Assembly (NCBI GenBank): GCA_019897865.1
Contig: GCA_019897865.1_4532.1
Length of the DNA: 64,000 bases
From: a phage
Reading direction: 5' to 3' (one strand)
Both the position numbers and the translations under genes were made by a program. Below are positions 1 to 17,931 of this stretch, one piece after another (position 1 is the stretch's first letter; every line of letters starts with the position of its first letter). The notes below the pieces were generated by a model. It was not told the DNA's origin and searched no databases. It saw only the letters and a program-made list of their open reading frames with translations.

Positions 1-296
1 AAAAAAACTTTAAATACTGTGGGCGCGCAAAATTTTTAAAATTTTCCTTGATTTTTGAGTTTTGTTTTGTATCTAACATTTTAAGATAATTTTCCTAAAC
101 TTTAAATTTTGGTTTTCAACTTTCACTTTTGTAAATTCTTAAAAAGTTTAAATAATTTGAGGGATTTTTGAGATAATGGATAGTGGGAATTTGATATAAC
201 CTTTAATCTTATTAGTAGACCTTCAGGAACCCACCTAGATCGAATCCTAGGGATGCAAACTGAAAAAGACAAGGGTTTGTATAGGACAAAATAATA

Positions 297-328
297 GGCT
301 CTCTACGGTGCTGTAGGAGCCTTATTTC
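297..328. terminator. Intrinsic terminator-like hairpin downstream of the leftward NADAR gene, T/A-rich on both sides
   Basis: ggctctctac/gtaggagcc stem with one bulge, followed by ttatttctg on + and tattatttt on the minus strand. Confidence 0.5.
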
Positions 329-377: not shown

Positions 378-920
378 TCACAAATATCGTCTTTGCGGTA
401 TTTTGTCTGGGAAAAGTATTTCGATCAGTTTATTATGATATTTTCCTAAAAGATTCTGCCCTTTCCAGGTAGCAGGGTTTAGCACCCCTGGTTCATACAT
501 TCCCATTCCAATACCGTAAACCTTATCGTAAGGACTTGCTTCAACAAACGTTTTGTATTGGTAAAGGTGTAAGTCTGCATACAAATCTGGATTCTGTACA
601 TATTTCAAGCATAAGCCTCGCATAACAATACGCTCACGGTTCTCTTCCCACATATCATTATTAAAACCAGATACCGCTCGACCCATACGTTTGTAGTATG
701 CTTGTTTCCTCTCGTTGTCACGTATAGTTGAGTGATCAAGGATAGCTGCTGCAATCGCATGATCCTTGAACAGCAAAGCCTTACGCCACATCATATATTG
801 CTCAACACAACAGAAAGTCTCATTGTAACCTGGTTCAGTTTCTGTAAAGGGTGCAATATACCAATTACTAAACACATCTTTATGTGAAAAGAAGAATACA
901 TATTCATCAGTTATTCTCAT
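378..920 (-). CDS. NADAR-domain protein (YbiA-like ADP-ribose processing enzyme)
   Basis: 180 aa; FSNW, CVEQYMMWRKALLF, MGR and GIG..N.LG motifs resemble E. coli YbiA/NADAR. Confidence 0.7.
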   Translation of the reverse strand: MRITDEYVFFFSHKDVFSNWYIAPFTETEPGYNETFCCVEQYMMWRKALLFKDHAIAAAILDHSTIRDNERKQAYYKRMGRAVSGFNNDMWEENRERIVMRGLCLKYVQNPDLYADLHLYQYKTFVEASPYDKVYGIGMGMYEPGVLNPATWKGQNLLGKYHNKLIEILFPDKIPQRRYL

Positions 921-1109: not shown

Positions 1110-1475
1110 TTAGTCCATCCACCAGTAGCCATAAACTGCGTCTGCGTCGATGAGTTTGTGTTTGTTGTTCCGCATGTAGTCTAAGATAAGTAGACGTTTA
1201 TTGTATCTGGAGAGATTATGACCCTCTTTTCCGCCATAGTCAAAATATTTTGCAAGATCTTTACACTCAAACAAAATCAGTTCGGGAGTTTCTTCACACT
1301 GGTCTGTCTGGTACACTTGACGAATGATCATGTATACATCGTCGTCTTCCGCTAAATGCTCTACTGGTCCACATCCAGCAGGAACAAATTCATAGTCCCA
1401 TCTGATCAGATGTTTCTCTACTGCTTCAAAGAAGTCCATTCTTTCGTTGCGCATAATTTGAACGTCAACTAACAT
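1110..1475 (-). CDS. hypothetical protein
   Basis: 121-aa ORF, GGAGG-containing RBS upstream (rc of ctcctctctc at 1481-1490). Confidence 0.5.
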   Translation of the reverse strand: MLVDVQIMRNERMDFFEAVEKHLIRWDYEFVPAGCGPVEHLAEDDDVYMIIRQVYQTDQCEETPELILFECKDLAKYFDYGGKEGHNLSRYNKRLLILDYMRNNKHKLIDADAVYGYWWMD

Positions 1476-2929
1476 GTTTCCTCCTCTCTCATTATTCCAC
1501 CTGCTTGGTTGATAGCACTTAAGACGATAGCCAAATCCTCGCGCAGGAAGGTTTCACTATGACCATCTTTCATGTGCAAGCGTTCTACACAGCCAATAGA
1601 CGGTAGAATCTGATCAGTCTTAGACTTTAGCTTACTCTCTAACGCCCTGCAAGCTTGGTAGGACGGCAGATCGAACAATGCTATACGGCGCATAGAGTAA
1701 TTGTTGTTTGCATTCTGCCCTTTGATCCTGATATCACTGTCCTTTGCAATCCCCAACTTGTAAGCTCCCGTGTCTTCTCCGTACTCATCAAGAATAATAT
1801 TGATGTAAAATTCTTGCATATTTCTGTTCTTACAGCCTGGACAACCTTTCCCATTGAGATAATCGGTAGGTGTGATCGTTTGCTCTCCATGCTCCCTACA
1901 TAGATATTTAAACTTGCTGTTATTGCTTACCTTATCAATGAATCCTATAAATTGATCCCCTCGTTCCTGGCAAGCTTTGGTCATACGGTAGGCCCATTGT
2001 TCAGGAGTGTAATGATAATATTTAGAACAACGGCAAGGAAGGCCACCCCTTTTCAAATGACTCATCTTCATCTCAAATTTATTATCGCATAAGCCTTCTT
2101 TACAATAATCATCCTCTGCACATATAGGACATTCTACAATCCAGTAAACCTGACGACCTAATCTATCTACTCTATCGCTACGATAATATTTACGCTCTAC
2201 ATTATCAGGACAAGCTTTTATAAAATCTTCAACATGTTGTTTATCCTCCATTGTATTCCTTTGTTTCGTCATTTCTCTTTGACAACTGTAGCATCCAGTC
2301 CCTTGTTTAGCACTGTTTACAGTGGTAGTGCACCATTGACCATGAACCTTACACTCACAAATCAACTTAGTGCGGGAACCGTTCCACGGTTCCACATAGC
2401 CTCTAACAATCCAGGGTTTTTCTTTATAAGCTTCTTCTACTTCTTCTTTATGTTTCTCCCATGCAATCGATGTTCTTTCTCTGTTTGCTTCTCCCATACA
2501 CTTCCTGCATCCACTCCCGTTTTTCGCAGAAGATATAGAAGTAGACCTCCACTCCCCATGTAAAGCACAACAACAAACCAGTTTAGTATTCCATCCTTTC
2601 CATTCTCCGTGCCATCCTGTAACAGTCCAAAACTTACCTGCCTGATTGTAAGTGGTTTGCACTTCTTCTTTATATTGCTCCCAGGTTTTTGATTTGTTTA
2701 TAGATACTGCTTTACTTATAATCTCCCTACCGCATTCTGGACAACCCCTCCCTAGTTTAGCGGTATTTATGCTTGTTGTTTTCCATTCTCCATGCAGAGC
2801 ACAGATGCATCTAAGTTTAGTTTTATTGCCGTTCCACGGCTCAATATAATCTACAACAGTCCAAGACTTACCTTGATAAGCTTGTTTTATATCTGTTTTA
2901 TATTGTTCCCAAGTGACTATTTTTGGCAC
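1469..2929 (-). CDS. Homing-endonuclease-like protein: three tandem ~66-aa Zn-ribbon repeats plus GIY-YIG/T5orf172-like C-terminal domain
   Basis: 486 aa; repeated W..YK...W.G..TKL.C.CALHGEW...S.AK.G.GC..C units; C-terminus FYINI...YKLGIAKD...R...E; GTG start with GGAGG RBS. Confidence 0.5.
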   Translation of the reverse strand: MPKIVTWEQYKTDIKQAYQGKSWTVVDYIEPWNGNKTKLRCICALHGEWKTTSINTAKLGRGCPECGREIISKAVSINKSKTWEQYKEEVQTTYNQAGKFWTVTGWHGEWKGWNTKLVCCCALHGEWRSTSISSAKNGSGCRKCMGEANRERTSIAWEKHKEEVEEAYKEKPWIVRGYVEPWNGSRTKLICECKVHGQWCTTTVNSAKQGTGCYSCQREMTKQRNTMEDKQHVEDFIKACPDNVERKYYRSDRVDRLGRQVYWIVECPICAEDDYCKEGLCDNKFEMKMSHLKRGGLPCRCSKYYHYTPEQWAYRMTKACQERGDQFIGFIDKVSNNSKFKYLCREHGEQTITPTDYLNGKGCPGCKNRNMQEFYINIILDEYGEDTGAYKLGIAKDSDIRIKGQNANNNYSMRRIALFDLPSYQACRALESKLKSKTDQILPSIGCVERLHMKDGHSETFLREDLAIVLSAINQAGGIMREEETC

Positions 2930-3017
2930 ACCTCCCCCTTTAGCTATTAGTGCGAGCCTACAACAAAAGAATAACTAAAATCCCTCCATAACAAATGCCC
3001 CTTGCGGGGCATCTTTA

Positions 3018-4157
3018 TTAGAACACGCTACCAAGTGTAGTGGAACGTTGTGTTACAGGCTCCAGCACCACTCGCAAAGTGTTTCCTGGTGTAGTGCTCA
3101 TAACCAGAATCTTACCACCTTCAATCAGATCACAAGTTAGACCATCAGCCGTTGCACATAGATCAATATGTGGATCACCATCTTCATCCAGGATAACATA
3201 ACTGTTGGTTTCCATTGCTTCCACTTCATCATCTTTCAAACTTTGTAGATAGATGTTCAGGGAACAAGCACCCGACAAAAACTTAGTAGGGGTGAAGTCG
3301 TGCCAGTTATTGATCCAATTCACCTTCAAGGTTTTGCCATTAGCTACGATAGAAGCCACATTCCATTTAGCATCGTTCCCTAAAGAAATACCCATCATTT
3401 CAAGACATTCTTTAAAAGTCATTTTTGGATAGAAATTCAATTCTTCTACAATGCCTTGAATAACATCGAAAGACAACTCTGTGCTAACATCCCATAAACG
3501 TTGGAAGTTATCTACGTGCTTTTTATTTACCAAGTTCTTATCCAAGTAATCTAACATAGTTTCACTAGACAGTTTATCGTAATTGAAACTGTAGTAGATA
3601 CGACTAGGACGGTTTACAAAATATTCCGAGATATAACCACTATTTTTAGTGAGGATGTAAAGTTTATTCCCACTTCCTGTTCCATCCAACAAGGTCAACA
3701 GTGCTTCCTGATCTTCTTTCTTAGCGTACACTTTATCAAATTCGTCAAATAAAACAACAGCACGATCTGTAATTTTACTCATAAATTCTAAGAAGCCAGC
3801 ATCTGTGTAAGGCTGTGTAACCAAAATGGTTGGAATACCTAAACCTTCTGTGGACATTAGAGACATGCTAATTAGTTTAGCTAACATCGTCTTACCACTG
3901 CCTTTTGTCCCTGTCAGTAACACCCCAGTATTTTTACCTTCTTTACTACGACGAGCAAATGTTTTAATAACATGTGCGGCGCGATCTTTAGTTTCCCCAT
4001 AAAGAGTGTTCGGAAGAGAGAAACTTTCACCACGCACTAAAGAGTAGTTACCGTGCGGATCGCAGTTGACAACCCAAACTCCAGCAGGAAGTTTATTAGC
4101 TTCAACGCCATATTCCTTATTTACAACAGCTACATCTCCAAAAATAGTGTATTTCAT
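3018..4157 (-). CDS. AAA-type ATPase
   Basis: 379 aa; Walker A GTKGSGKT and Walker B VVLFDEFDK. Confidence 0.65.
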   Translation of the reverse strand: MKYTIFGDVAVVNKEYGVEANKLPAGVWVVNCDPHGNYSLVRGESFSLPNTLYGETKDRAAHVIKTFARRSKEGKNTGVLLTGTKGSGKTMLAKLISMSLMSTEGLGIPTILVTQPYTDAGFLEFMSKITDRAVVLFDEFDKVYAKKEDQEALLTLLDGTGSGNKLYILTKNSGYISEYFVNRPSRIYYSFNYDKLSSETMLDYLDKNLVNKKHVDNFQRLWDVSTELSFDVIQGIVEELNFYPKMTFKECLEMMGISLGNDAKWNVASIVANGKTLKVNWINNWHDFTPTKFLSGACSLNIYLQSLKDDEVEAMETNSYVILDEDGDPHIDLCATADGLTCDLIEGGKILVMSTTPGNTLRVVLEPVTQRSTTLGSVF

Positions 4158-15649: not shown

Positions 15650-17464
15650 ATGAAAGATTTGTACCAAGATGTTTTTTCTTTTTTAGATCGCACTTCAGAA
15701 ACATACACTAGAGAGAATGCAAACAAACCTTCCCACCTCGTTAACACGCATAGGGATCTCTTGGCGGGGATTTTAAGCAAACATATGGCAATGACACAGA
15801 TACTGCCAAAAAACTTGTCAGAATGGCATACAGAAGGTTTTGGACATATTCACGATTTGGATTATCTACTCTCTCCTCTTACAAACTGTTGTCTTGTTAA
15901 TTATCAAGATATGTTAGAGAATGGTTTTAAGATCGGAGCCGCACAAATAGAAAAACCAAAATCTATTGGGGTAGCTACTACAGTGCTAACTCAAATCATT
16001 CAAGCTGTTGCCTCCAGTCAGTATGGAGGTCAGACGTGTGCGCACATTGATAAAGGTCTTAGTCCTTATGTTGAAGCTAGTTTCCTTAAAAACATGGAGA
16101 TAACTAAACGTCGCTACGGTTGTTATGCAAGGAAAGAAGCCCTAGAAATGACCGAACAAGATGTATATGATGCTATGCAAACTCTCTTGTATCAGGTTAA
16201 TACTTTAATGAGTGTAAATGGACAATCTCCTTTTATTACAATTAGTATGGGTCTGGATACCTCTGTTTTTGGCAGAATGATCACAGCTAACTATCTTAAA
16301 GTGCATAGTAATGGTCTAGGCAAAGATCATGTAACACCTGTATTTCCTAAAGTTATTTTCTTTTTACAAGAAGGTGTTAACATGAAACCTAGTGATCCTA
16401 ATTATGACCTTAAGCAACAAGCTTTGGCATGTTGTGCTGATCGCATTTATCCAGATTTTATTTCTGTTCCTTTGAACAAAGAAGTTACGGGATCAGCAGA
16501 TGGTACTGTTACGAGTATGGGTTGTCGTTCCTTTTTGTCGTACTATGCCACCGAACAAGGAGAAAAATATGATGGACGATTCAACCTTGGAGTAGTTTCT
16601 ATCAACTTGCCTCTGATTGCTGCGGAAGCGAGAAGTAAAGGAGAATCTTTCACCGACCTCCTTAATAAACATATGGAGATAGCCTACGATGCTCACATGT
16701 TACGTGTAAACCGTATTAAACATACCAAAGCATCTGAAAACCCTATTCTTTTCATGGAAGGGGCTTTAGCGCGTTTAAATGCCAACGATGAAATTGGTGT
16801 TTTGTTTGAAGATGGTTATGCTTCTATTAGTATTGGTTATGTAGGTCTTGCTGAAGCTTTGGAAATCCTTTATCCAGAAGAAAAAGATAAAAAGGAGCTA
16901 GGTAAAAACATTCTGCAACATATGAAAGATGTGTGTGCTGTGTTTAAAGAGCGATCTAAGCTGGCATTTAGTCTCTATGGAACTCCAGCAGAATCTTTGT
17001 GCTATAAGTTTGCAACAGCTTTAAATGAAAAATATCCAGGTCTGGTAGAAAGAGATTATCTTACTAACTCTTTTCATCAACCTGTATGGTTGGTAACAAA
17101 TCCTTTTGAAAAATGGGATTATGAAGCAGGTTTTGCACAGATTAGTAATGGTGGTAACATAAGTTATGTCGAAACACCAAACTTAAAGAATAACTTAGAA
17201 GCTTTGGAGACTTTAGTAGACTACGCTTATGAACATATTCACTATTTTGGTATTAATCAGCCCGTGGATCAATGCTTTAAGTGTGGTTTTCATGGAGAAT
17301 TTAAGGCAACGGCTAAAGGGTTTGAGTGCCCTGATTGTGGCAACCATGAAGAAGAAACTATTTCTGTAGTTAGACGTGTATCAGGGTATCTTTCTGCTCC
17401 TAATTCACGGCCTTATAACAAAGGTAAAATGCAGGAAGTTTTGCAAAGGGAGAAACATCTTTGA
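15650..17464 (+). CDS. nrdD: anaerobic ribonucleoside-triphosphate reductase (class III)
   Basis: 604 aa; C-terminal Zn ribbon CFKCGFHGEF...CPDCG and glycyl-radical motif RRVSGYL. Confidence 0.85.
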   Translation: MKDLYQDVFSFLDRTSETYTRENANKPSHLVNTHRDLLAGILSKHMAMTQILPKNLSEWHTEGFGHIHDLDYLLSPLTNCCLVNYQDMLENGFKIGAAQIEKPKSIGVATTVLTQIIQAVASSQYGGQTCAHIDKGLSPYVEASFLKNMEITKRRYGCYARKEALEMTEQDVYDAMQTLLYQVNTLMSVNGQSPFITISMGLDTSVFGRMITANYLKVHSNGLGKDHVTPVFPKVIFFLQEGVNMKPSDPNYDLKQQALACCADRIYPDFISVPLNKEVTGSADGTVTSMGCRSFLSYYATEQGEKYDGRFNLGVVSINLPLIAAEARSKGESFTDLLNKHMEIAYDAHMLRVNRIKHTKASENPILFMEGALARLNANDEIGVLFEDGYASISIGYVGLAEALEILYPEEKDKKELGKNILQHMKDVCAVFKERSKLAFSLYGTPAESLCYKFATALNEKYPGLVERDYLTNSFHQPVWLVTNPFEKWDYEAGFAQISNGGNISYVETPNLKNNLEALETLVDYAYEHIHYFGINQPVDQCFKCGFHGEFKATAKGFECPDCGNHEEETISVVRRVSGYLSAPNSRPYNKGKMQEVLQREKHL

Positions 17465-17931
17465 ATTTTGCAGGATATGAACCTGTAGATCTTATTAATG
17501 GTGAGGGAGTTAGGTGCTCCCTCTGGGTTAGTGGTTGTAGCCACGGTTGTCGTGGCTGTTTTAACCAAAAAGCCTGGTCTTATTCTTATGGGAAACCGTT
17601 TACTGACGAAAATGTAGAGCAAGTTTTAAAAGATTTGTCAAGACCATTTGTAAAAGGTTTAACAGTTTTAGGAGGAGAACCATTAGATCCGCAGAATATT
17701 CACAATGTTAAAAGCCTTATAGAAAAGGTTAGAGACGTTTATGGGTCAAGCAAAGATATAATGGTGTATACAGGATATACTTTTGAGGAAGTGCCTTTGT
17801 ATATTAAAAATCTTGTTGACATTATTGTAGACGGAAAGTACGAAATAAACAATCCAACTACAAAACCTTTCAGAGGGTCAGATAATCAAAGATTATGGAC
17901 CAAAACGGCAAGTGGTTGGCAATCAGATTAA
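17461..17931 (+). CDS. nrdG: anaerobic ribonucleotide reductase activating protein (radical SAM)
   Basis: 156 aa; CSHGCRGC radical-SAM cluster motif; TTG start overlapping nrdD stop. Confidence 0.8.
   Translation: MNFAGYEPVDLINGEGVRCSLWVSGCSHGCRGCFNQKAWSYSYGKPFTDENVEQVLKDLSRPFVKGLTVLGGEPLDPQNIHNVKSLIEKVRDVYGSSKDIMVYTGYTFEEVPLYIKNLVDIIVDGKYEINNPTTKPFRGSDNQRLWTKTASGWQSD

Follow-up and report, generated by a model that had tools for sequence, protein, structure and literature searches.

A putative free-standing homing endonuclease of the T5orf172 class with five CapR-type zinc fingers in a Phapecoctavirus coliphage

Our analysis points to a free-standing homing endonuclease gene of the T5orf172 class, within the GIY-YIG superfamily, whose product carries five CapR-type zinc fingers in its N-terminal portion, a reading to which we assign a probability of roughly 0.7. 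It builds on the protein's architecture and fold, residue conservation, a discrete cassette with empty and occupied sites, several alleles, and a mosaic boundary, all of which are shown here. The gene occupies positions 1469..2929 (minus strand) of the window, by which we mean the whole 64,000-nt stretch analyzed here (assembly GCA_019897865.1, contig GCA_019897865.1_4532.1), which belongs to a Phapecoctavirus genome, an ESCO13/phAPEC8-like coliphage. In the ORF list it runs from a GTG start (2929-2927) to a TAG stop (1471-1469) and encodes 486 aa; deposited phage records give identical boundaries, the protein is 100% identical to UniProt A0A1D7XFK1 (phage ESCO13), and RefSeq Schickermooser gp173 is annotated “endonuclease”. 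The protein also matches PHROG 681, “endonuclease”, over aa 5-483 (8.8e-84); an NCBIfam search returned no match, and a PDB sequence search with the whole protein returned only noise. We found 28 homologues, 25 of which were aligned and showed coherent conservation of Cys/His and catalytic residues, and the N-terminus MPKIVTWE is common to homologues P0002 and P0008. Within the 64-kb window, tblastn revealed no second copy of the family; a weak match at 17210-17341 was rejected as a paralogue, being the C-terminal zinc motif of NrdD.

An array of five finger modules

Five finger modules span the N-terminal three quarters of the protein, specifically, three clear tandem repeats (R1-R3) and two divergent modules (R4 and R5). 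The tandem repeats are 74-76 aa each, with a period of 222-234 nt, and share 42-52% pairwise protein identity, with Smith-Waterman scores 27-39 sd above those of shuffles. Their DNA units (2720-2917, 2486-2689, and 2270-2467) are 58-62% identical (z about 10 versus shuffles), a tblastn search of the gene with its own product gave an off-diagonal match of aa 66-239 to a shifted copy (E=3.6e-36), and a repeat search of the DNA recovered three 38-nt copies at intervals of 222 and 228 nt. The array escaped Tandem Repeats Finder, its units being too diverged (about 60% identical), and the DNA repeat was assessed by direct alignment with shuffles in its place. Each of the three repeats contains the motif C-x-C-x2-H-G-(E/Q)-W...G-C-x2-C, as C41xC43xxH46GEW...GC63xxC66 in R1, C119xC121xxH124GEW...GC141xxC144 in R2, and C191xC193xxH196GQW...GC213xxC216 in R3.

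All five modules lie on the minus strand. The whole protein matches Pfam CapR (PF21817) at 99.3 bits (E=1.4e-28) over five stretches, and, against a gathering score of 24.2 bits, R1, R4, and R5 pass singly, with R2 and R3 just below. R1 (2720..2917; aa 5-70), with candidate ligands C43, H46, C63, and C66, plus C41, scores 26.4 bits alone (8.1e-6). R2 (2486..2689; aa 81-148; candidate ligands C121, H124, C141, and C144) scores 22.2 bits alone (1.6e-4), is 50% identical to R1 (z=27), and is nearest (62-69%) to the single N-type finger of shorter alleles. R3 (2270..2467; aa 155-220; candidate ligands C193, H196, C213, and C216) scores 22.8 bits (1e-4) and compares with R1 at z=39; its C193, C213, and C216 are invariant in the 25 homologues. 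R4 (2009..2239; aa 231-307) is a divergent module that scores 41.3 bits alone (1.7e-10) and shows no similarity to R1-R3 in pairwise comparison. Its spacing, C267xxC270, 28 residues, and C299xC301, is of the published CapR type, in which CxxC and CxC pairs lie 24-26 residues apart, and all four Cys are invariant. Finally, R5 (1832..2008; aa 308-366; C344xxH347...C363xxC366) scores 38.5 bits (1.4e-9) and compares with R1 at z=10, and its ligands are invariant. The variant ligand set C-x2-H...C-x2-C, found in R1, R2, R3, and R5, is invariant or nearly so across the 25 homologues. Judged by conservation, the modules carry the two ligand pairs, predicted to be able to hold zinc, that are expected of CapR fingers.

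AF2 places the second ligand pair (e.g., C63 and C66) where a helix, H64-77, begins, and the first pair on a strand and turn; further, relatives match DUF4379, which Pfam labels “probable treble clef”. This modeled arrangement is typical of treble-clef fingers. Foldseek found no significant PDB match for the full-length model; its top matches, tandem dsRBD proteins (E=4e-3, probability 0.38), were not taken as homology, what they have in common being the alpha-beta-beta-beta-alpha order of each finger module. The 3+2 fingers form the largest array among the 28 close homologues.

These results bear on a sequence-only reading of the same DNA, which had described three tandem Zn-ribbon repeats of about 66 aa (about 200 bp), each with a C.C...HGEW...GC..C ligand set, in this 486-aa ORF. 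The ORF and its three repeats are confirmed, and the motif was found in every unit, with HGQW in R3. The diverged repeat at the DNA level also stands, with a period of 74-76 aa (222-234 nt); the figure of about 66 aa matches the conserved core in length. Of the ligand set, C-x2-H...C-x2-C is conserved across the 25 homologues, but the first Cys of the “CxC” is not. R4 and R5, each passing the CapR profile alone, bring the count of modules to five, and the fingers, whose named family is CapR, are probably not ribbons.

The C-terminal nuclease domain

The C-terminal domain (1481..1816, minus strand; aa 372-483) is T5orf172-like and is modeled with a GIY-YIG fold. Specifically, its AF2 model (pLDDT 90.4) has a beta-beta-alpha-beta-alpha core, and this core, with its three-stranded sheet, would place the domain in the GIY-YIG superfamily. 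Structural neighbours in BFVD carry the names homing endonuclease, GIY-YIG, T5 Orf172, and MUG113. The conserved residues are Y375, K391, G393, R401, E431, D455, G456, and E459. Strands 1 and 2 bear Y375 and G393, respectively, helices 1 and 2 bear R401 and E431, respectively, and a Lys (K391) takes the place of the canonical second Tyr of GIY-YIG. Over 105 representatives homologous to the C-terminus, K391, G393, R401, E431, G456, and E459 show no variation, and Y375 almost none. The stretch from G393 to R401 aligns with G19 to R27 of I-TevI at equal spacing, in an hhalign comparison of the C-terminal profile with I-TevI that was not significant overall, and a search of PDB sequences with the C-terminus profile found none.

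The family assignment is less direct. The 486-aa protein scores only 13.6 bits (E=0.099) against Pfam T5orf172 (PF10544), below the gathering score of 20 bits; T5orf172 is its sole Pfam match in the C-terminal region and the top match in 13 of 16 homologues. Among the 105 C-terminus representatives, T5orf172 is matched by 23 (best 1.4e-6), MUG113 by 19, and CapR by 90. Homology to T5orf172 is supported by way of intermediates, since P0029, P0030, P0032, and P0050 match the C-terminus at E=3e-15 to 2e-8 and score 21.5-23.1 bits against T5orf172 in the homologous region. Membership of the protein in T5orf172 rests on its homologues and fold, its own score being sub-threshold.

An intergenic cassette with empty and occupied sites

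Alignments of empty and occupied sites delimit the whole mobile cassette to 1485..2992 (minus strand), about 1508 nt, where the empty intergenic site has 9 nt (CTCATATAC). Its left edge lies at 2992, and compared with other Phapecoctavirus genomes, flank identity breaks at 1484/1485 and at about 2993-3015. The cassette is free-standing, between the stop codon and terminator of an ATPase gene and the ribosome-binding site of the next ORF. The empty site is seen in phiWec188 and phiWec190, and the ATPase gene and the downstream ORF are both intact in the empty-site phage. The near-isogenic phiWec179, with flanks 97-98% identical, carries a 1007-nt cassette of the same lineage that replaces 9 nt at the same junction, and its left junction is that of the window cassette. 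Phage EP57 was rejected as a further empty site: a deletion of the sequence corresponding to window 1488-3027 fuses the ATPase to the downstream ORF, and, as this is a deletion in a genome with other deletions, EP57 was not used for defining the insertion site.

The boundaries can be followed at the nucleotide level. On the upstream side, a terminator-like hairpin of the ATPase gene (2995..3012, minus strand; GCCCCGCAAGGGGC followed by a T-run), found in a hairpin scan and annotated as an ARNold terminator in NC_048196, is identical in the empty-site phage phiWec188; by this comparison, it is native flank outside the cassette and marks the insertion point. The 5' leader of the cassette (2930..2992, minus strand), delimited by comparing the junctions of empty phiWec188 and occupied phiWec179, carries a purine-rich Shine-Dalgarno, AAGGGGGAGG, at 2940-2931. 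A scan from the upstream terminator to the start codon found no sigma-70-like promoter, and folding of the leader RNA revealed nothing unusual beyond the terminator (z=-1.1), thus giving no sign of occlusion of the ribosome-binding site. On the downstream side, a comparison of 3' junctions among four alleles and the empty site, together with the sequence and ORF list, defines an overlap with the next gene (1469..1484, minus strand). It is formed by the last five codons and stop, GAG GAG GAA ACA TGT TAG, which cross the native ribosome-binding site of ORF 1110..1475, GGAGGAAA, and its ATG (1475-1473).

The locus is also diverse. Relatives carry same-lineage alleles with one or two N-type fingers, against three here, and other relatives carry much more divergent alleles; in this one intergenic slot, nuclease domains can be only 34-37% identical between alleles whose flanks are 93-99% identical. 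In phAPEC8 and vB_Ec-G1, and at the syntenic position in the Justusliebigvirus VEcB, the upstream terminator accompanying the allele is a different one, implying that these alleles arrived separately. Further, a mosaic boundary falls at the gene, with identity to phiWec179 rising from about 74% in the ATPase to 98-99% in gp012, an indirect pointer to copying of the gene together with its flanks by co-conversion. A discrete intergenic cassette with presence/absence polymorphism in close relatives is what would be expected of a free-standing homing endonuclease gene. The sequence-only reading had noted a resemblance of the C-terminus to GIY-YIG/T5orf172 nuclease cores, which the fold search and transitive homology bear out, and had suggested a homing-endonuclease-like protein, a suggestion strengthened by this clean polymorphism in near-identical flanks. 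It had also proposed a comparison with intron- or intein-free alleles; the gene is intergenic and lies in neither, and the comparison holds once recast as one with empty intergenic sites.

Homing, known systems, and alternative roles

In the mechanism we propose, the five CapR modules would bind DNA and zinc and jointly read a long DNA site as “beads on a string”, thereby positioning the C-terminal GIY-YIG-fold domain, which would cut DNA via Y375, R401, and E431. During coinfection with a cassette-less relative, cleavage might fall near the ATPase/gp012 intergenic site, and repair of the break from the cassette-bearing genome would carry over the 1.5-kb cassette together with adjacent markers. 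Several results speak against this reading, namely, the protein's sub-threshold T5orf172 score, the search of PDB sequences with the C-terminus profile that found none, the Lys at position 391, and the scan that found no promoter-like site ahead of the start codon. Canonical GIY-YIG enzymes (I-TevI and the T4 Seg proteins), as well as SLX1/HIGLE, have the same catalytic core fold; canonical GIY-YIG homing endonucleases share the modular layout, in which DNA is bound by a distinct region containing a small Zn finger, and the T4 seg genes are likewise free-standing and intergenic.

The closest known systems are arrays of CapR fingers joined to T5orf172, which have been published as putative homing endonucleases (Netter 2021, PMC8096241; Barth, Dunham & Seed 2023, PMC10448857). 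Published members include ICP1 Gp174, Gp165, Gp121, Gp53, and Gp130, the HEGs of Vibrio phage Helene, and relatives of T5 Orf141/Orf172. As here, these proteins begin with CapR/DUF723/DUF4379 fingers, often as repeats, and end with a T5orf172 domain; their genes have repeats at the nucleotide level that vary in number between alleles and are free-standing, adjoining conserved genes at a boundary of genetic exchange. It is at such exchange boundaries that T5orf172 homing endonuclease genes whose CapR/DUF723/DUF4379 fingers are repeated have been described (PMC10448857). Our case differs from the published set in its similarity to canonical T5orf172, which is weak (13.6 bits), in its 3+2 fingers, and in its lineage, Phapecoctavirus (Stephanstirmvirinae), which is not discussed in the main text of PMC8096241 or PMC10448857; a literature search for the gene in Phapecoctavirus returned nothing specific.

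One alternative is that the nuclease has been domesticated and serves the phage without active homing, for example as a sequence-specific weapon directed at satellites, rival phages, or the DNA of the host, with the fingers setting the target. Occupancy is consistent with such a role: among 77 locus-matching records, 2 are empty, 1 has a deletion, and about 74 are occupied, and the slot is also filled in the sister genus Justusliebigvirus. This near-fixation, however, is equally compatible with a successful selfish gene. The invariance of catalytic-site residues over the 105 representatives indicates lasting selection for activity, and T5orf172 nucleases repurposed against satellites provide a precedent (PMC8263062; PMC10448857). 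Specifically, Odn (Gp88), the origin-directed nuclease of ICP1, likewise has a C-terminal T5orf172 domain with conserved Arg and Glu; it cleaves DNA, E180A abolishes cleavage (PMC8263062), and it is the sole T5orf172 protein with demonstrated cleavage in the T5orf172 literature covered. Odn is targeted by a RepA_N domain captured from the satellite and acts in anti-satellite defence rather than homing, whereas the N-terminal domains here are generic CapR fingers and not a captured replication-initiator domain. The clean indel polymorphism, the occupation of one site by several unrelated alleles, and the mosaic boundary are instead the signature of a mobile homing endonuclease gene, and we regard domestication as unlikely.

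A second alternative, which we consider quite improbable, is that the protein is a catalytically dead derivative acting now as a DNA-binding regulator only, perhaps of early or middle genes nearby. Precedents exist in the autorepression of I-TevI and in CapR, the capsid-operon repressor of PLE, a Vibrio cholerae phage satellite, which derives from the same family (PMC8096241). PLE CapR shares the Zn-finger family PF21817 and, with R4, the CxxC...CxC arrangement, and it binds DNA sequence-specifically via its Cys motif, by EMSA (PMC8096241). The sub-threshold T5orf172 score, the Lys in place of the second Tyr, and translational coupling of the gene to the downstream ORF would also suit such a regulator. 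Yet K-x-G rather than Y-x-G is usual in the sub-family, with K391 in 105 of 105 representatives, including the 23 that match T5orf172. Further, dead derivatives such as CapR, a 15.5-kDa single-domain repressor, lack the nuclease altogether, whereas the protein here has five modules plus a full nuclease domain in which R401, E431, and E459 do not vary, and Y375 scarcely varies, across a divergent family. That the repeats and nuclease resemblance are a chance or compositional artefact of a spurious ORF, for which only the missing Tandem Repeats Finder report speaks, has a negligible probability, given repeat z scores of 27-39 (protein) and about 10 (DNA), the CapR match at 1.4e-28, confident structure models, and the coherent Cys/His and catalytic conservation among homologues.

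Returning to the homing endonuclease reading, its design has already been described in other phages, and the gene is an ordinary further example. The recently recognized T5orf172/CapR-array class gains a well-delimited case from a coliphage genus with many sequenced genomes, and what is known of the class is unchanged. Less probably, the one-, two-, and three-finger alleles and the unrelated alleles in the same slot could represent a natural retargeting series, in which gain or loss of CapR fingers shifts the cleavage site and so lets successive variants re-invade a locus immunized by its previous occupant; or else the near-fixation, at about 74 of 77 genomes, might reflect recruitment of the nuclease to a phage function, for example the exclusion of coinfecting relatives or satellites. 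Regardless, the empty site, the near-isogenic occupied site, and the alleles of differing finger number offer a convenient system for relating finger number to target specificity and for asking whether homing is real. For annotation, “hypothetical protein” or “endonuclease” could become [quoted passage not shown].

Domain architecture of the putative endonuclease

The 486-aa protein is most likely a free-standing homing endonuclease of the T5orf172/GIY-YIG type (probability about 0.7). Its gene lies on the minus strand at 1469-2929 and starts at GTG, boundaries put forward in an earlier sequence-only reading and confirmed by the ORF list and by identical public annotation. Over its first 6 kb, the window shows 99.8% identity to Phapecoctavirus coliphages (e.g., ESCO25, ESCO13, and Schickermooser), a group of phAPEC8-like myophages of ~150 kb. 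GenBank submissions call the gene product a “hypothetical protein” and RefSeq an “endonuclease”, while the identical ESCO13 protein (UniProt A0A1D7XFK1) is titled “CapR homology domain-containing protein”.

The sequence-only reading also proposed three zinc-ribbon repeats of ~66 aa. In a tblastn comparison of the protein with its own DNA, an off-diagonal match covered aa 66-239 (E=3.6e-36), and the three N-terminal units, R1, R2, and R3, were 42-52% identical pairwise, with local alignment scores exceeding those of shuffled controls by 27-39 standard deviations. As DNA, the units (2720-2917, 2486-2689, and 2270-2467, minus strand) were 58-62% identical (z about 10), with direct 38-nt matches spaced 222 and 228 nt apart within the array. 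The proposed repeat coordinates were therefore correct, as was the motif, C-x-C-x2-H-G-(E/Q)-W...G-C-x2-C in every unit, but the period was 74-76 aa. Tandem Repeats Finder did not detect the array because its units are too diverged; at about 50% identity to each other, the copies are old. When 25 homologues were aligned, C-x2-H...C-x2-C emerged as the conserved putative ligand set, the first Cys of the “CxC” being variable.

The number of fingers required revision to five, as the Pfam CapR homology domain (PF21817) matched the whole protein in five stretches (1.4e-28). When modules were scanned singly, the best CapR scores came from two divergent modules, R4 (aa 231-307, 1.7e-10) and R5 (aa 308-366, 1.4e-9), compared with 8e-6 to 1.6e-4 for the three obvious repeats. 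R4 carries C267, C270, C299, and C301 in the published CapR spacing, CxxC...CxC, and R5 carries C344-x2-H347...C363-x2-C366, with all of these putative ligands invariant in the 25-homologue alignment. In the full-length AlphaFold model (pLDDT 84.3), each module consists of one helix, then three strands and another, short helix, with the second ligand pair positioned where the next helix begins. This arrangement, together with the matches of relatives to DUF4379, labeled “probable treble clef”, suggests that the predicted finger fold is probably treble-clef-like rather than a zinc ribbon.

The proposed GIY-YIG/T5orf172 likeness of the C-terminus was upheld by several lines of evidence. Scanned alone, aa 362-486 had T5orf172 (PF10544) as the sole match, below threshold (13.6 bits vs 20), while four close homologues (P0029, P0030, P0032, and P0050) passed its gathering score in the homologous region. 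An exhaustive phmmer search with this domain against 1.84 billion representatives (E<=1e-3) yielded 105 proteins, all with the domain C-terminal; 90 contained CapR, 23 matched T5orf172 (best 1.4e-6), and 19 matched MUG113, its sister family. A separate AlphaFold model (pLDDT 90.4, pTM 0.83) has a beta-beta-alpha-beta-alpha core, and its viral structural neighbors are named homing endonuclease, GIY-YIG, T5 Orf172, or MUG113. Across the 105 sequences, no variation occurs at K391, G393, R401, E431, G456, or E459, and Y375 is almost fully conserved. The only segment aligned by hhalign pairs G393...R401 with G19...R27 of I-TevI (sequence checked against 1mk0 and 1ln0), namely, the YIG glycine and the catalytic arginine. 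By its position in helix 2, E431 would be the counterpart of I-TevI E75, judging from secondary structure rather than superposition. Beside a homing endonuclease, we considered a nuclease that has been domesticated, which seems unlikely, and a regulator whose nuclease is dead, which seems very improbable.

The preferred homing-endonuclease reading has precedents. CapR, which represses the capsid operon of the V. cholerae satellite PLE, binds DNA via its Cys motif, and its relatives include the N-terminal domains of ICP1 proteins that end in T5orf172 domains, proteins themselves proposed to be homing endonucleases (Netter et al., PMC8096241). Odn, a T5orf172 protein, cleaves DNA, and E180A abolishes cleavage (Barth et al., PMC8263062). 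Further, CapR, DUF723, or DUF4379 fingers occur in 200 of 229 T5orf172 homing endonuclease genes, often repeated as “beads on a string” (Barth, Dunham and Seed, PMC10448857). Every feature of the gene studied here fits that description. The main text of that study does not discuss Phapecoctavirus, and our literature search turned up no publication about this gene specifically.

Variation in finger number

Among 28 homologues, R1-R3-type fingers number one (330-342 aa), two (396-409 aa), or three (the window protein only), and all of these proteins continue with R4, R5, and the nuclease domain. Of the three copies in the window protein, R2 most resembles the lone finger of the shorter alleles (62-69% identity). 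Together with an empty site, these alleles offer a convenient natural series on finger number versus specificity.

Other arrangements were also observed. P0002, a 669-aa homologue from a 22-kb metagenomic contig, comprises two complete family endonucleases joined head to tail, both of them having a finger, R4, R5, and a nuclease domain, and represents either a read-through tandem pair of homing endonuclease genes or a real fusion. P0027 and P0028 (665 aa) carry about eight DUF723/DUF4379-type finger repeats and a different C-terminal domain, so this finger array appears to pair with nucleases of other kinds as well. That domain contains an ...EYDGEQH... motif, which is typical of Vsr/PD-(D/E)XK-like nucleases. 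PHROG 559 (“HNH endonuclease”) matches only the finger region of the window protein (aa 8-248).

Empty and occupied sites

The gene is free-standing, a correction to the sequence-only reading, whose homing-endonuclease-like assignment is otherwise supported. Upstream lies an AAA ATPase gene (3018-4157), separated from it by the ATPase terminator hairpin (2995-3012); downstream, its last codons overlap the RBS and ATG of a small ORF, gp012 (1110-1475). The site is empty in only two of 77 locus-matching records, phiWec188 and phiWec190, where it reads ...GGGGCATTT-CTCATATAC-GGAGGAAAATTATG... In phiWec179, a near-isogenic phage whose flanks are 97-98% identical, the 9 nt CTCATATAC are replaced by a same-lineage cassette of 1007 nt, and the window cassette (1485-2992) has the same left junction.

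A third cassette-less record, EP57 (vB_EcoM_EP57, OR544956.1; 1501-2574, matching window 1488-3027), has lost the entire cassette along with the final 10 nt of the ATPase gene; this deletion joins the genes on either side into a 501-aa ATPase-gp012 ORF. Its 130-kb genome carries more deletions close by, at window 176-298 and 613-984, so EP57 seems to represent an isolate or assembly rich in deletions and not a naturally empty site.

The 486-aa allele is present in about 23 of the 77 records, and other alleles occupy the slot elsewhere, e.g., phAPEC8 gp013 (394 aa) and that of vB_Ec-G1 (330 aa). Relative to the window, their nuclease domains are only 34-37% identical, with flanks at 93-99%. The alleles of phAPEC8 and vB_Ec-G1, and the syntenic allele of Justusliebigvirus VEcB, accompany a different upstream terminator, so the slot was filled on more than one occasion. 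Downstream of the ATPase gene, different phages have one of two unrelated hairpins: GCCCCGCAAGGGGC occurs in the window and the empty-site phage, and AAACCCGCTTCGGCGGGTTT occurs in phAPEC8, vB_Ec-G1, and VEcB, hairpin type covarying with endonuclease allele (window 2993-3017 compared with loci L002 2760-2810, L003 2570-2620, and L006 2770-2800). Identity between the window and phiWec179 is about 70-79% in the ATPase gene; within the endonuclease gene it climbs from 62% (DNA-binding part) to 86-90% (nuclease part), and in the downstream ORF it is 98-99%, so the endonuclease gene sits on a recombination boundary.

Elsewhere in the window, a 180-aa ORF (378-920, minus strand), which records of relatives label DUF1768/COG3236 or “GTP cyclohydrolase II”, presumably has a YbiA/NADAR-type fold, one associated in phages with the reversal of DNA ADP-ribosylation. 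The stretch 15650-17931 (plus strand) contains nrdD (604 aa) and nrdG (156 aa), the anaerobic ribonucleotide reductase genes, and the only other finger-repeat match in the window (tblastn, E=0.023) was a chance-level one to the C-terminal zinc motif of NrdD. GC skew changes sign at about 6600 and about 42000, consistent with switches in transcription direction between gene blocks.
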